The notes under the pieces are model-generated. The model was not told the origin of the DNA and did no database searches. It saw only the letters and a program-made list of their open reading frames with translations. 20,000 nucleotides of DNA, from IMG/VR virus record IMGVR_UViG_2700989568_000007; one strand, 5' to 3'. A program made the translations under genes and the position numbers. Of the stretch, positions 2,896 to 20,000 are shown piece after piece; positions within the stretch are counted from its first letter, which is position 1, and each line of letters opens with the position of its first letter. The stretch comes from an uncultured virus (IMG/VR IMGVR_UViG_2700989568_000007) (lineage: Duplodnaviria > Heunggongvirae > Uroviricota > Caudoviricetes).

Positions 2896-4422
2896 ATGGC
2901 AATGTATGAAGTTGGCACCGTAACGGGTGCAGCAAACCAGGCAAAGGTTACTGGTATTTCAACAAAGTGGTCGGAGCCCGCACTTGGTATTCAAGAGGGT
3001 TCAATTTTAGTCATTTATCGCAATGGAAGTGCTGATCTGTATGCCATCAAATCAGTAAATAATGACACTCAACTGACTTTGACGAGAAACATCACAACAG
3101 CTTTTTCTGGTGCGAAATATGGAATTATCACGTCAGAAACTGCCAGCACATCGTCTTTTGCGAACCAACTAGCCAGTGCATTTACTCTTTGGCGTAACGT
3201 TGTCCAAGGATGGTCTACAGCCCTGACCGGAAGCGGCGACATTACGATGACAGACCCTATTACAGGTACGCAGGTGACCGTACCGGCGATTGCCGGGATG
3301 GCGAAGGCTTCGGATCTGGATGCGCTGGCTAAACTTTCAGGGGGAAACAACCTCGCCGGCTCGCAAATTATAACCAGCGATAATTCCGGTTTTATTTTGG
3401 GCAGGAATTCAGATCTGGCTCTGCTCAAAAAACAGGGGCAAGGCGGGACAATTGCCGTTGGCTCGGGAACACCGTTCAGGGTTCAACGTTCAAGAGCGAC
3501 CACTGTATCACCGTCAGACACCTATGATGACATCCTCGTTATTGGCACCAACAACCAGACGACGTTGCCCGGAGATTTGGTTGTCGGTGGTGGTTTCGAT
3601 AATACGGCAAAGGGCAAGCTGTATTCCCAGGCGTTAGAGCTGTCGATGGGCACTCCGTACATCGATTTTCATCATAACAATAGTACCAACGACTACACTG
3701 CTCGTCTCATAACCACAGCCGCTGATCAACTGAGTGTGCAGGGGAGCCACCTACGGGTAGACAGAGACCTGCGGGTGGGGCAAGCGGCCGACATCGGCAG
3801 CTGGATACAGTGTCGCTATGACTGTGTGTCCCAGCAGACCGACTTCGGTTCCCCTGCCATTGGCGCGTTAGTTTCCGGTGGCAGAGTCCGGTCCCGCATG
3901 ACAGGGCGTGGAGGAAACGGCGACACGTCTGGAGCGTGGGGTGGTTTCTACCTTGAAGAATACGTTGGGTACAACCACCGAGTGGTACTGTATATGGACG
4001 GCTTCGACAGAAAAGATGCCTGGCTCTTTTACACCGGTGGGACAATCTCCACACCTAAAGGCGATGTTATGACCACTGGCTCAGACGTGCGGCTGAAAAA
4101 AGATTTTACGGATTCTCAGAAAGGGGCATCCAAGCGTATTAACGCGCTGGGGGTATGTGAGTTCAACATGAAAGGCGAAACACGCCGTAGGCGTGGATTT
4201 ATTGCTCAACAAGCCGAAAAAGTGGACCCGATTTACACTTTCCAAAGCGGTGATGTAGAAATTGATGGCGAGAAGATCAATATCCTTAACGTAGATCAGA
4301 CAGCAATTGTCGCAGACCTGGTAACTACCGTTCAGGAGCAATACGAATGTATCGAAAAACTAAAAGGTGAGATCCAAAATCTAAAGGTTTTAGTGATGAA
4401 CACATCAGCAAAAGCGACTTAA
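2896..4422 (+). CDS. Tail fibre protein with C-terminal intramolecular chaperone (peptidase S74) domain
   Basis: The N-terminus MAMYEVGTVTG..KVTG..T.W is typical of tail fibres. It has a PYIDFH..DYTARL fibre motif and an SDVRLKKD autocleavage motif followed by GFIAQQ and a terminal coiled coil. RBS AAGGA. Confidence 0.88.
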   Translation: MAMYEVGTVTGAANQAKVTGISTKWSEPALGIQEGSILVIYRNGSADLYAIKSVNNDTQLTLTRNITTAFSGAKYGIITSETASTSSFANQLASAFTLWRNVVQGWSTALTGSGDITMTDPITGTQVTVPAIAGMAKASDLDALAKLSGGNNLAGSQIITSDNSGFILGRNSDLALLKKQGQGGTIAVGSGTPFRVQRSRATTVSPSDTYDDILVIGTNNQTTLPGDLVVGGGFDNTAKGKLYSQALELSMGTPYIDFHHNNSTNDYTARLITTAADQLSVQGSHLRVDRDLRVGQAADIGSWIQCRYDCVSQQTDFGSPAIGALVSGGRVRSRMTGRGGNGDTSGAWGGFYLEEYVGYNHRVVLYMDGFDRKDAWLFYTGGTISTPKGDVMTTGSDVRLKKDFTDSQKGASKRINALGVCEFNMKGETRRRRGFIAQQAEKVDPIYTFQSGDVEIDGEKINILNVDQTAIVADLVTTVQEQYECIEKLKGEIQNLKVLVMNTSAKAT

Positions 4423-4518: not shown

Positions 4519-4842
4519 ATGTCAAACGAGATGGCAGGCGTGACGCCAGAGCAGGTGGAGCGCATTGCCGCAATTGTTGCGCGAGAAGTCGTAGGAAAAT
4601 TAAGTAAGGAGCTTCGCGATGATATTGGCCAGGAGGTCAACGATCAGCTGCGAACCTACTTTGGTGATATGACTCCGGCGCAACATAGCATTCAGCATTC
4701 CAACCTGGACAAACTTCTTAATCGGCTCGACACGATTTCAAGCGGGTTCTTTGGAGGCATTATTTCCAAGATTACCTCGTTCCTGATCACCGTGCTGCTT
4801 TTGGGTTTGGCCGCTTATGGCGTGAAAAATGGACTGCAATAA
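4519..4842 (+). CDS. Putative holin-like membrane protein
   Basis: GGAGG RBS before the ATG at 4519 (alternative start 4507), a C-terminal hydrophobic helix FLITVLLLGLAAYGV, and first position in the lysis cassette. Confidence 0.5.
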   Translation: MSNEMAGVTPEQVERIAAIVAREVVGKLSKELRDDIGQEVNDQLRTYFGDMTPAQHSIQHSNLDKLLNRLDTISSGFFGGIISKITSFLITVLLLGLAAYGVKNGLQ

Positions 4843-13898: not shown

Positions 13899-13977
13899 GC
13901 CGTGACTATGTACTGTGTCCCCGTACAGAGTTATTTAAACTGATTAGTAAGTAAGTACAAGATTATCATTTAGAGAA

Positions 13978-15865: not shown

Positions 15866-15940
15866 GATGGTGTAGCTCAGTGGTAGAGCGGTTGACTGTT
15901 AATCAGCTGGTCGGTGGTTCGAATCCCCCCACCATCGCCA
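15866..15940 (+). tRNA. tRNA-Asn (GTT)
   Basis: Acceptor stem GATGGTG/CACCATC, D arm GCTC..GAGC, anticodon loop CTGTTAA, TTCGAAT T-loop, encoded CCA; one T-stem mismatch. Confidence 0.93.
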
Positions 15941-16386: not shown

Positions 16387-16447
16387 CTTACTTTTGTGTT
16401 AACTTTTAGGTATAGTTCGTCTGGTTACTCACTTGAAAGGACTCAAT

Positions 16448-17224
16448 ATGGGAAACAAACGTAAACAGGCGCGACGTGCAGCTCGCCAGGCGCTTAAGTC
16501 AAAATCGCGTATCCTTGGCTACGAGATCGACACTATTATCGTAGACGAGGTGGCCTCCGCCGCCCCTGCTCTGCCCCCAAAACCGAAGCGTGATACTTCC
16601 CCCATAGAGGCACGCAACGAAGCCCAGGCCCACTATCTTATCTCTCTTGATAGCAAAGCACTGACCTTCGCCACTGGCGAAGCCGGCTGCGGTAAAACCT
16701 TCCTGGCGACGGCAGTCGCGGCACAGCGATTACTCGATAAGGAAGTAGAGCGAATTATCGTTACGCGCCCCGTACTGCAGGCAGAGGAGGATTTGGGCTT
16801 CCTGCCTGGCGATATGGCCGAGAAGTTCGCTCCGTTCTTTCGTCCCGTCTACGATGTGCTGCAGAAGCGCCTGGGCGCTTCATTTCTCGAATACTGCCTA
16901 AAGCCTGAGGTGGCTAAAGTCGAGATCGCCCCCTTCGCATACATGCGCGGTCGCACGTTCGAAAACGCTGTGGTGATCCTCGATGAGGCCCAGAACGTGA
17001 CGGCGTCACAAATGAAGATGTTCCTGACTCGGATGGGTGAGAACGTAACGGTCATCGTGAATGGTGATGTAACCCAATGCGATCTGCCGGGTAATGTTAA
17101 ATCTGGTCTTGAGGACGCCCTGCAGCGGTTCCGGCCATCTCGCCAGGTAGGGCTCATTGAGTTCACGGCCGAAGATTGCGTGCGCTCTGAGCTGTGCAAA
17201 GTGGCGCTTCAAGCCTATCTGTAA
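16448..17224 (+). CDS. phoH: PhoH-family ATPase
   Basis: GEAGCGKT Walker A, LGFLPGD, YMRGRTF, ILDEAQN, FLTRMGE and GDVTQCD motifs; AAAGGA RBS before ATG 16448. Confidence 0.95.
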   Translation: MGNKRKQARRAARQALKSKSRILGYEIDTIIVDEVASAAPALPPKPKRDTSPIEARNEAQAHYLISLDSKALTFATGEAGCGKTFLATAVAAQRLLDKEVERIIVTRPVLQAEEDLGFLPGDMAEKFAPFFRPVYDVLQKRLGASFLEYCLKPEVAKVEIAPFAYMRGRTFENAVVILDEAQNVTASQMKMFLTRMGENVTVIVNGDVTQCDLPGNVKSGLEDALQRFRPSRQVGLIEFTAEDCVRSELCKVALQAYL

Positions 17225-17233
17225 GGAAACAAA

Positions 17234-17620
17234 ATGACTGACATGGAAATCGAAAAAGAAATCGTGGCCAAGGGAAAAACGGCCGCGCGAGTAACCCCAG
17301 AACGTATCCAAAGCGTTATCCGCGCCGAACATTATTTTACGGCCTTTGATGGCAGATCTGGCGCCCTGGCAAGTGGGACCTATGCCGGCAAAGAGGTGCC
17401 AGTTGCTGGCGACGCTGATCTTGAGTCGCTTAAATTACTGACGTTTTGTGTACTGGTGTTGGAGAACGGATTCATCGTTACCGGTGAATCAGCTTGTGCA
17501 AGCCCGGAAAACTTTGATCCGGAGATCGGTCGTAAGATTGCGCGCCAGAACGCAGTCGCTAAAATCTGGCCACTTGAAGGATATCTCTTAAAACAAAGAT
17601 TTAACAAGGCAAAACAATGA
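17234..17620 (+). CDS. Phage Gp49/Gp66-family protein
   Basis: LTFCVLVLENGFIVTGESACASPENFDPEIGRKIARQNA..KIWPLEGY signature. Confidence 0.85.
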   Translation: MTDMEIEKEIVAKGKTAARVTPERIQSVIRAEHYFTAFDGRSGALASGTYAGKEVPVAGDADLESLKLLTFCVLVLENGFIVTGESACASPENFDPEIGRKIARQNAVAKIWPLEGYLLKQRFNKAKQ

Positions 17621-17862
17621 AGTGTGTGATTTATGGCCGAGGTAATTGCTCCTTCTGTAAGCGGGCAGTTGAGCTGGCGAAGCAGCTGCAGGGGCATGGA
17701 TATGGCGAATATCAGTACATCGATATTGTCGCTGCCGGGATCGATAAACAAAAGCTGAGTGAAATGGTTGGGAAGCCGGTAGAAACCATTCCCCAGGTGT
17801 TTTTGGACGATGTTCCAATCGGCGGTTACACAGAATTTGCTGCTTTCGCAAGCACTCTGTAA
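17617..17862 (+). CDS. Glutaredoxin (GrxA-like)
   Basis: CSFC active site, ETIPQVF and IGGYTEF motifs. Confidence 0.92.
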   Translation: MKCVIYGRGNCSFCKRAVELAKQLQGHGYGEYQYIDIVAAGIDKQKLSEMVGKPVETIPQVFLDDVPIGGYTEFAAFASTL

Positions 17863-18583: not shown

Positions 18584-18994
18584 ATGAAAGTCACATGGAA
18601 TAGTGATAGTTACGCCCGATTTTTGGAGCCGGTCTTCAGAGTTATGCCAGATCTGAAGACCTCCTTGCTTACTGATTTTGTGAGTTTTAAGAACGGCTTT
18701 TATCCGGCCGTTTTTGGCAAAGATGGCCCCTATACCGAACCTGGTTCTGTAGTTTCCTCTCGTGTTTACCACGTTCATCTCTTATTCACCAAGCAAGAAC
18801 GAAATAGTCACCGAAACAGGTTCAACTGTACAAGCGACCGCGCCCTCGTTTATACCCAGCACGCCAAGTTTCAGGACGTGTATAGTCTGCTGGCCATCTT
18901 CCCAAATAATGCTCACAACACGGCAAATGACAATGGAATAATGAATGACATTGCCAAATACGCTGAAGCCTTCCAGAAATTAACAAACCCGTAG
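18584..18994 (+). CDS. YafO-family type II toxin (mRNA interferase-like)
   Basis: FGKDGPY, YHVHL, TSDRALVY and LLAIF.NNAH motifs match the YafO family pattern. Confidence 0.8.
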   Translation: MKVTWNSDSYARFLEPVFRVMPDLKTSLLTDFVSFKNGFYPAVFGKDGPYTEPGSVVSSRVYHVHLLFTKQERNSHRNRFNCTSDRALVYTQHAKFQDVYSLLAIFPNNAHNTANDNGIMNDIAKYAEAFQKLTNP

Positions 18995-19057: not shown

Positions 19058-19417
19058 TTAGGCACTTAATCTAGTCGTTGCGCGTATGCATAAATATACA
19101 AGGAATAACGGTACAGAAAGCGGCATGCAAAATAACCACAAAATAATGAACATGCCATACACACCGCTATTCACGCCAATGTGACGATCCCAAAAGGGTT
19201 TGGTCATTATCTTAAGGGCTAGTTTCTCCGAAGTATAATATGAGAATGGGTACAGGATGGCGCTTAAAACAAGATATGTAACCACAAATGGCATATAAGG
19301 AGCATAGGCAGGAAAAATGAGTCCGTCATTCATATCGCGCACTATAAAGTAGATCAGATAGCCATAACCACACCATCCCCATAAGCAGTGCCGTAAATAA
19401 TATTTTAAGGTCATCAT
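19058..19417 (-). CDS. Colicin E1-type (pore-former) immunity protein homologue
   Basis: Three hydrophobic segments. MTLKYYL.., SAILYPFSYY..EKLA...KPFW and LFCMPLSVP parallel the ColE1 Imm pattern as recalled (MSLRYYIK..STILCPYSKYAIE..LLCLVLAIP). GAAGGA RBS. Confidence 0.7.
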   Translation of the reverse strand: MMTLKYYLRHCLWGWCGYGYLIYFIVRDMNDGLIFPAYAPYMPFVVTYLVLSAILYPFSYYTSEKLALKIMTKPFWDRHIGVNSGVYGMFIILWLFCMPLSVPLFLVYLCIRATTRLSA

Positions 19418-19724
19418 CTATGATTCCTTCATAGCTATACCGTTAAAGCTATCATATCATGAATTGACGAAGTACCCCCTTCGAGACCAGGCGGCATCGA
19501 GACAGCCATAGACGCAAACATGACTGAACTGGCACCGGACAACGATGGGACATAACGCATAGACAAGGGTGATGTCGCAAACAAACAAGCGGGAAATGAA
19601 TGACTCTGCCCAGATGACTAATTTTCAAAAAAAAGGCTTTCTATGATTCCATACTTGGTAGGTATGGAATCATTAGACAAAAGAGGGTATTTTAGGTTGA
19701 TCTCAATAAAAACAATGCCTAATA

Positions 19725-19743
19725 TACTGTATATAAACACAGT
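19725..19743. promoter_or_regulatory. LexA (SOS) box
   Basis: TACTGTATATAAACACAGT is a close match to the consensus TACTGTATATATATACAGTA (CTG-N10-CAG at 19727-19742). Confidence 0.85.
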
Positions 19744-20000
19744 GTGCGCCGGGAGACCGGTAGAGATCAAGGGGTGAAAGTCCCCGACCATTGAAGGACC
19801 AGCAATCCACAAGGTCCCCGAGTCATGCGTTGCATACCGCGAGGTATGGGGCGAAGCGTTGACAGGGGTGTTGACAGGCCAGCCATTGAGCCACGAAATG
19901 TATATTAAATTACCGGGTGCCGACGTTGTACTGTTAACGGAAGGCAACATCATAGGGTGCGATACTGCGAGTGCCACATGGACCCGGCGGGGTCTGAGAC
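19744..20000 (+). mobile_element. Group II intron, 5' end (domain I), continuing beyond the window
   Basis: Begins with GTGCG, with an abrupt AT-to-GC shift. Domain I-like elements: GGGGTGAAAGTCCCC, CCCCGAGTCATGCG, GAAGCGTTGACAGGGG and GCCATTGAGCCACGAAA. A candidate EBS1 loop is complementary to the upstream exon. Confidence 0.8.

Follow-up and report, generated by a model that had tools for sequence, protein, structure and literature searches.

A group II intron inserted at LexA-type operators, and the RNA pairing that may guide it there

In Gamma- and Betaproteobacteria the LexA (SOS) operator is a palindrome, CTGT-N8-ACAG, with an A+T-rich spacer. The homing sites known for group II introns are single genes, insertion sequences and terminator stems. 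The DNA described here brings the two together: near the end of a 20,000-nucleotide stretch from an uncultured virus (the window), a group II intron begins at the very edge of a LexA-type box. What placed it there? A preliminary description of the window suggested that the intron picks its target by pairing between its EBS sequences and the operator, and that it may home to LexA operators as a class. We compared copies of the intron and their flanks in genomes, viral contigs and metagenomes. We conclude, with a probability of about 0.85, that the lineage homes to the LexA operator through EBS1 and EBS2 pairing and its own reverse transcriptase, the copy in the window being the element Se.ma.I1/Kl.pn.I5.

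The window is part of a Klebsiella phage-plasmid of ~110 kb, and the intron lies in sense orientation between the operator and the start codon of an integrase gene (Table 1). The box reads TACTGTATATAAACACAGT. As the preliminary description had it, the intron starts with nothing in between, its 5' GTGCG occupying 19744-19748; the A at the operator's twentieth position lies past the intron, where it opens the 3' exon. By its letters the box qualifies as a LexA palindrome, and the matrix compiled from 77 clusters of insertion sites (below) gives the same palindrome. The 20-kb window has two matches to strict CTGT-N8-ACAG where 0.28 would be expected; 5 of 200 shuffled sequences also reach two. 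The other match, at 13913-13928 (CTGTGTCCCCGTACAG), has a G+C-rich spacer and is probably due to chance.

Table 1. Features of the window around the intron (window coordinates)
Feature	Positions	Strand	Basis or remarks
tRNA	15866-15937		
PhoH-like gene	16433-17224		
Glutaredoxin-like gene	17617-17862		
YafO-toxin-family ORF	18584-18994		Pfam E 3.5e-24
Colicin-E1-type immunity-like membrane protein	19058-19417	-	
Possible SOS promoter (TTGATC, 16 nt, TAATAT)	19698-19725	+	by-eye reading, inference only
LexA-type operator, 19/20 positions	19725-19743	+	CTGT-N8-ACAG core at 19727-19742
Predicted IBS2 (-13/-12 to -7) and IBS1 (-6 to -1)	19731-19743	+	pairing count, covariation
Group II intron, 5' part (GTGCG and most of domain I)	19744-20000	+	first 257 nt of 1909; rest past window end
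EBS2 candidate UGUAUA(U), internal loop just 3' of GAAA	19899-19905	+	unpaired in Rfam consensus and minimum-energy fold
EBS1 hairpin, 5-bp stem, loop UACUGU	19924-19939	+	minimum-energy fold, Rfam consensus, covariation

What did the site look like before the intron arrived? In two intron-less relatives, the Klebsiella phages pJN2-26 and vB_Kpn_1825-KPC53, the box is uninterrupted (TACTGTATATAAACACAGTA) and leads without a break into the same 3' exon and the integrase gene (TAATATACTGTATATAAACACAGTATAAAAAGCGTC...ATG). Insertion was therefore precise: the intron separates T(-1) from A(+1) in an otherwise complete 20-nt operator, and no target bases are duplicated. CTGT-N8-ACAG also stands at this position by the homologous integrase gene of E. 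coli phage Cyrano. Occupancy is low, the 5' exon-intron junction being present in 16 plasmid records and the integrase exon (at least 95% identity) in 311. In the nearest virus record, G001, the same integrase site holds an intron variant just 92.1% identical, a divergence suggesting that this site has probably been invaded repeatedly.

The candidate promoter matches 8 of 12 consensus positions and overlaps the box by one base, its last. The intron-less relatives have kept this stretch; a promoter scan of positions 19500-19800 returned no sigma-70-like site. If this promoter is used, transcription would start inside the box and the 5' exon would be only about a dozen nucleotides long. Some 25 nt upstream of the putative -35 element, at 19643-19673, lies a perfect 12-bp inverted repeat (ATGATTCCATAC, 7 nt, GTATGGAATCAT), kept in pJN2-26 and vB_Kpn_1825-KPC53 and found in slightly different form in Cyrano. 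It may be a phage repressor operator or the terminator of the upstream gene.

The window ends inside the intron. On the + strand, positions 19777-20000 score 176.9 bits (gathering score 49; E 4.3e-52) against model positions 1-225 of Rfam family RF02005 (group-II-D1D4-6); the intron is thus real and cut by the window's end. Its 257 nt in the window are identical, 257/257, to the copy in the Serratia plasmid R478. A complete copy at the same kind of site is found in plasmid NZ_CP132620.1 (locus L340), which agrees with the window at 100% over a 400-nt stretch across the 5' junction and at 3419 of 3457 nt over the whole shared stretch; from it we infer the 3' part of the window's own copy. Its gene order is that of the window (phoH, gp49-like, glutaredoxin, YafO-like, colicin-E1-type immunity-like), followed by the intron and then by a site-specific integrase, and its junction reads T/intron/A. 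The L340 intron is 1909 nt long, 99.9% identical to the R478 copy and, in an alignment of 1910 columns, 99.8% identical to that of CP006658 (plasmid p2 of K. pneumoniae JM45), a copy that a table in PMC6764390 labels Se.ma.I1/Kl.pn.I5. We identify the window's intron, by sequence identity, as this already catalogued element of Klebsiella and Serratia plasmids. A much lower identity to CP006658 (83/257, ungapped) was discarded as the artefact of a 1-nt insertion, gapped alignment giving the 99.8%.

The absence of a domain V/VI or of a reverse transcriptase downstream would, according to the preliminary description, have refuted its reading; a reverse transcriptase and putative domains V and VI are present in the L340 plasmid copy and in sister copies. 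The intron encodes a protein of 495 aa with an RVT_1 domain (E 1e-45); the Pfam search at E <=0.01 returned no HNH and no maturase match. The ORF in L340 is annotated ltrA and shares its protein accession with that of R478. The closest PDB relatives of the protein are group II intron reverse transcriptases (E about 1e-43), a sequence search that does not settle the class of the intron. Folding of the terminal 76 nt of the G001 copy gives two hairpins (-46.3 kcal/mol, z -4.55), and a UA bulge lies 7-8 nt before the 3' end; domains V and VI are expected to look like this. On the R478 copy the Rfam D5/D6 family was not reached at E 0.01, only the D1 family being matched.

Does the association with a LexA box extend beyond this one locus? 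The intron's first 257 nt are present at 4823 places in 4259 of 72,556 plasmid records (Klebsiella accounting for 3751 records), in 4 phage records and in 215 of 5426 complete E. coli genomes, where 45 of the copies are chromosomal and 222 lie on plasmids. Scanning genome contigs for the intron's 5' 18-mer gave at least 120 loci, 117 of them with enough flank. Among the matches listed, 24 of the 117 belong to this clade, and CTG-N10-CAG stands at the junction in 22 of the 24. The remaining matches listed serve as controls, with a box at 1 of 93: one of 19 other group II introns with the same 5' 18-mer, and none of 74 non-intron chance matches to the 18-mer. The sole boxed control intron in that list (L033, Herbaspirillum) is itself a relative.

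A more specific pattern added 97 viral loci and at least 114 metagenome loci. Pooled over genomes, viral contigs and metagenomes, the matches number at least 250: 10 intron-intron junctions and 240 others. From the latter, as listed, we kept the 232 with at least 80 nt of 5' flank, dropped 8, and clustered the flanks by DNA similarity upstream of the box. The matches listed fall into 79 flank clusters, 62 with strict CTGT-N8-ACAG, 67 with loose CTG-N10-CAG and 12 with no box. The 67 boxed clusters among these listed matches hold 45 distinct operator sequences. One operator sequence is shared by 14 of the listed clusters, which may represent homologous prophage operators; the clusters are thus not all independent, and 45 is the safer count. 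Homing to LexA operators as a class, as the preliminary description proposed, is supported by these figures. It had also asked for a logo of the flanks of other copies: the matrix of 77 clusters among the matches listed (two, L253 and L269, excluded) reads TACTGTATATATATACAGT/AT, the slash marking the insertion point, and is a LexA-type palindrome. On the 3' side of listed insertion sites, +1 is A in 25 of 26 and +2 is T in 24 of 26.

The 12 box-less clusters among the matches listed are of three kinds. Two are distant relatives with a different EBS1 (L253, L269). In two more (L278, L286) the left half-site has been replaced by an ISL3-type element. The other eight of those listed are degenerate and retain the right half and spacer only.

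Could the box and the intron simply travel together in one larger DNA element, or stand side by side by chance? The window alone would allow it, and nothing beyond that single locus favours it. The 79 clusters among the matches listed have unrelated DNA upstream of the box and, between them, 45 operators; empty sites already have a complete box; and 74 of 74 listed chance matches to the 18-mer are without one. We therefore regard this explanation as extremely improbable, and a single mobile segment carrying both box and intron is contradicted by the varied flanks and by the complete boxes at empty sites.

By their record titles, the hosts are Enterobacterales and Burkholderiales (Burkholderia, Paraburkholderia, Trinickia, Pelomonas and Herbaspirillum). 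Seven loci (L022, L032, L043, L054, L057, L063 and L069) place an enterobacterial intron in contigs, most of them short, that are filed under Actinomycetota or Prevotella. Their 5' flanks look enterobacterial, and these are probably contaminant contigs in the assemblies.

How would an intron recognize an operator? The preliminary description pointed to a stem-loop that presents ACTGT, the complement of the exon end ACAGT, as EBS1. The complementarity is there in the sequence: ACUGU(U) at 19930-19935 pairs with positions -1 to -5 (-6), that is, with ACAGT at -5 to -1, and the adjoining U19929 could pair with A(+1). The hairpin (CGTTG, TACTGT, TAACG) is the minimum-energy fold of 19885-19996 and matches the terminal hairpin of the Rfam consensus. 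By itself the D1 piece folds no better than shuffled sequences (z -0.12); what supports the structure is the covariance model together with covariation.

The covariation is clear. Twenty distinct intron/flank combinations of the structural family, taken from the 18-mer scan of contigs, were compared. This family includes introns with quite different targets, and each EBS1 loop was scored for pairing with the last 6 nt of its own 5' exon. Among the matches listed, all six positions pair in 11 combinations and at least five in 18. The mean for own loop with own flank is 5.45 of 6 pairs; shuffling the flanks gives 4.52, with a maximum of 5.10, and none of 500 shuffles reaches 5.45. Individual introns illustrate the point. 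A Paraburkholderia relative (L008) has the loop CCUGU and is inserted after ACAGG. The distant relatives L253 and L269, which have no LexA box, are inserted after AACACGG and AACACAG; the homologous loop is CUGUG in L253 and was not recovered in L269. A true EBS1 elsewhere in the intron, the doubt raised in the preliminary description, does not agree with these results: it is the loop at 19929-19935 that co-varies with the targets.

For EBS2 the proposal was TGTATAT, complementary with one mismatch to -13 to -7, and it too has stood. UGUAUAU pairs with ATATAAA at these positions except for a G.A mismatch at -8. Within the enterobacterial type, pairing leaves the register ambiguous, for a window moved by 2 or 4 nt along the AT repeat of the spacer pairs nearly as well. 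Two subfamilies with compensatory pairs fix the register that had been proposed. The B. cenocepacia type has the hexamer UGGAUA and, at two sites (L116, L291), TATCCA at -12 to -7; L018 and L280 have UGUUUA and the site TAAATA at -12 to -7. At position -8 the 77 sites have A in 28, T in 39 and C in 10, A being the base that forms the G.A mismatch with EBS2.

Two minor observations concern the pairing. Five of the 232 copies, at different sites (L127, L178, L180, L208 and L214), have C rather than T at -1 (ACAGC/intron) with an unchanged EBS1 loop, giving an A.C mismatch. A word resembling GTTC-N7-GTTC at L089 and L093 was considered as an alphaproteobacterial LexA motif. We rejected this because the two hosts are of one genus, Cupriavidus, their flanks appear to be homologous, and a match of the EBS1 loop to TTCTGA is explanation enough.

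We propose the following mechanism. The EBS1 loop ACUGU(U) in domain I would pair with the conserved right half-site ACAGT, and the EBS2 internal-loop hexamer UGUAUA with the A+T-rich spacer at -12 to -7. The intron RNA would then reverse-splice exactly after the T of ACAGT, and the intron's own reverse transcriptase would copy it into DNA. In introns without an endonuclease domain, such as RmInt1, priming is by host replication; the protein encoded here has no recognizable endonuclease domain, so priming probably depends on host replication as well.

This mechanism makes two features of the insertions understandable. The first is their orientation. Because the operator is palindromic, either strand can be hit, and insertion into both would yield sense and antisense copies. 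We called orientation only from flank ORFs with Pfam matches, ORF heuristics being noisy. Sense copies are found at the window's integrase, at the E. coli chromosomal umuDC, at the cloacin gene and at prophage dinI and umuD-like genes; in antisense copies, such as that at umuD of plasmid R478, the gene diverges from the box. The dinI and umuD-like genes have copies in both orientations. Among the matches listed, the two largest clusters, L257 (33 members) and L140 (30), are antisense to the SOS gene. A further copy has its junction in the tisB region of an E. coli chromosome (L341). The box at other copies belongs to umuDC, tisB, dinI and the cloacin gene.

The second feature is tandem arrays. 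Head-to-tail copies with zero spacer (...CGCGAC/GTGCGCC...) start at a LexA box at L147-L150, on one viral contig, and at L187-L188; one array contig has at least 4 intron copies and reaches the contig end. The first copy in L148 matches the R478 intron exactly; 6 of the 1909 positions are different in copies 2 and 3, so the array is not simply a collapsed-repeat artefact. The arrays fit re-invasion of an occupied site, because all positions read by the RNA stay in the 5' exon; an occupied site would thus remain open to new invasion.

The flanks are also mixed. One 3' exon, beginning ATATTTAACAGCG, stands behind at least six unrelated 5' exons (for example L186, L222, L229, L232, L273 and L286), and in L140 the 5' flank is of the umuD type and the 3' flank that of dinI. 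Such mixtures suggest recombination between intron copies on different replicons.

The pairing model leaves one observation unexplained. The left half-site, at -19 to -14, carries 1.0-1.5 bits per position among the matches listed and lies outside the EBS1 and EBS2 pairings. Is the whole operator recognized after all? The intron protein might contact the left half, or the palindrome might be read as a single-stranded DNA hairpin, much as group IIC introns read terminator stems. Besides the conserved left half, the frequency of full boxes speaks for this: they make up 67 of the 79 clusters (85%) among the matches listed, against only 47% of the pattern-matching sites in hosts. The latter is a rough figure from four host genomes, where 25 of 53 matches to a right-half-plus-spacer pattern also have CTG on the left; the pattern is loose and occupied sites were counted too. 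By this estimate operators are about half of the pool of pairable sites. Against recognition of the whole operator stand the eight listed clusters with right half and spacer only, which show that the left half is not obligatory, and the covariation of both EBS1 and EBS2 with the target; moreover, an EBS2 is present here but absent from group IIC introns according to PMC3522654. We consider such recognition doubtful, though it deserves more weight than the alternative that follows.

Targeting could also be broader than it appears. The intron might insert wherever 11-13 nt pair, only the harmless, transcribed intergenic copies behind SOS promoters persisting; the enrichment of LexA boxes would then reflect selection as much as targeting. 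Degenerate, non-LexA sites do exist, and a wobble-tolerant pairing pattern finds 24-40 matches per genome, just 0-4 of them LexA-like. These matches are mostly G+C-rich, however, and their pairing is weak; we rejected the pattern as a model of the target pool for being too permissive. Nor are the two largest clusters, L257 and L140, obviously transcribed from an SOS promoter, antisense as they are. Copies 99.8-100% identical lie at many operators, which points to recent moves and little time for purging. Selective survival of this kind is in our judgement unlikely, and we retain homing to the operator by EBS1 and EBS2 pairing.

If the intron homes to LexA operators, is its life cycle tied to the SOS response? 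Since the RNA reads 5'-exon positions only, a sense copy leaves an intact operator upstream of itself and would then be transcribed under LexA control. DNA damage could switch on intron RNA and protein from sense copies behind LexA-repressed promoters; the same damage would strip LexA off every operator, exposing the targets, and stalled forks could provide primers. With each burst the intron would reach more SOS genes, be they chromosomal, plasmid-borne or in prophages, and in either orientation. We offer this extension tentatively, as less than an even bet. Should it hold, SOS genes would be rewired, antisense copies separating umuDC from its upstream promoter DNA, and recombination between replicons would be seeded. 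The sequences show the intron's identity, its exact junction, its association with LexA boxes and the EBS/IBS covariation. On the view taken here the intron would also retrohome and splice at present and be induced by the SOS response, with priming as proposed above, and it may affect the integrase gene downstream.

RNA data bear on its expression. In one run of stranded raw reads (X24), most of the read pairs covering the intron have their first mate on the - strand, as sense RNA would in a library of the usual kind. Coverage is 130-190 deep along most of the first ~600 nt and 11-30 deep along most of the ORF, and reads continue into two other 3' exons. No spliced exon-exon junction was seen in the RNA data, this raw-read run included. 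The 20 RNA runs with matches carry ~0.8 of the sampled words, roughly the intron's share of the stretch. In an RNA-library assembly (run X1; L124:3932-6239) the integrase site is without the intron, which is present at another, umuD-type site. We do not take this intron-skipping contig for spliced RNA, since pJN2-26 has the joined form in its DNA and X1 contains the intron elsewhere. We read it as an empty allele; an unoccupied target and the intron can thus co-exist in one sample.

How much of this was known? Leclercq and Cordaux (2012; PMC3522654), in the part of the paper covered here, derive a consensus homing site of Kl.pn.I5 from three copies, using database EBS motifs, and report no free homing site in the one genome searched; LexA, SOS and palindrom- have 0 occurrences in its text. 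That part of their account does not describe the link to SOS operators, the many sites, the two orientations or the tandem arrays. Full-text searching found Kl.pn.I5 or Se.ma.I1 named, apart from that paper, in plasmid descriptions only. The same literature, to which subscription journals and the intron database do not belong, yielded, among the titles and abstracts listed, no paper linking a group II intron to LexA and nothing relevant on a group II intron with umuD, umuC or SOS. As far as we searched the full-text literature, then, the element is known and no published work describes its homing to the LexA operator.

Two known systems invite comparison. RmInt1 of Sinorhizobium meliloti, a group IIB intron without an endonuclease domain, has, in the portion of PMC4615759 consulted, the same RT/maturase-only protein, chooses its target by EBS/IBS pairing and is present in many copies at one repeated kind of target. 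RmInt1 homes to an insertion sequence, whereas the present intron homes to the operator of a host transcription factor at many unrelated genes. The likeness is one of protein make-up and targeting. Group IIC introns (class C) resemble it in homing to a class of motif at many loci, the motif being palindromic and insertion falling at its 3' edge. According to the passages of PMC3522654 at hand, they use EBS1 and EBS3 only and insert after the stems of Rho-independent terminators. Unlike them, the intron described here has an EBS2 region, a match to Rfam D1D4-6 and sequence-specific covariation with its target.

If true, homing to LexA operators would be a different strategy, with the operator of a global stress regulator as the landing pad. 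It would provide tens of ready targets per genome, shared across Gamma- and Betaproteobacteria and spread over chromosomes, resistance plasmids, colicin plasmids and prophages, and it would put a retroelement under damage-inducible control. A ribozyme of 1.9 kb would come to lie between SOS promoters and umuDC, dinI, tisB, bacteriocin genes, phage integrases or antirepressors. The abundance of the intron in plasmid records and E. coli genomes would give such effects practical weight, for SOS mutagenesis and for plasmid-plasmid recombination through identical intron copies. The intron also lets one test, in a natural setting, to what extent an RNA guide of 12-13 nt is enough to recognize a protein-binding site.

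A last observation concerns another mobile element. An ISL3-family element lies immediately 5' of the intron at L278, L286 and L226, all on metagenome contigs, and at L341, where it is annotated as ISKox3; L278 encodes a 406-aa transposase with a DDE_Tnp_ISL3 domain. The element takes the place of the left half of the LexA box, at umuDC or tisB, and this second mobile element may also prefer LexA operators.
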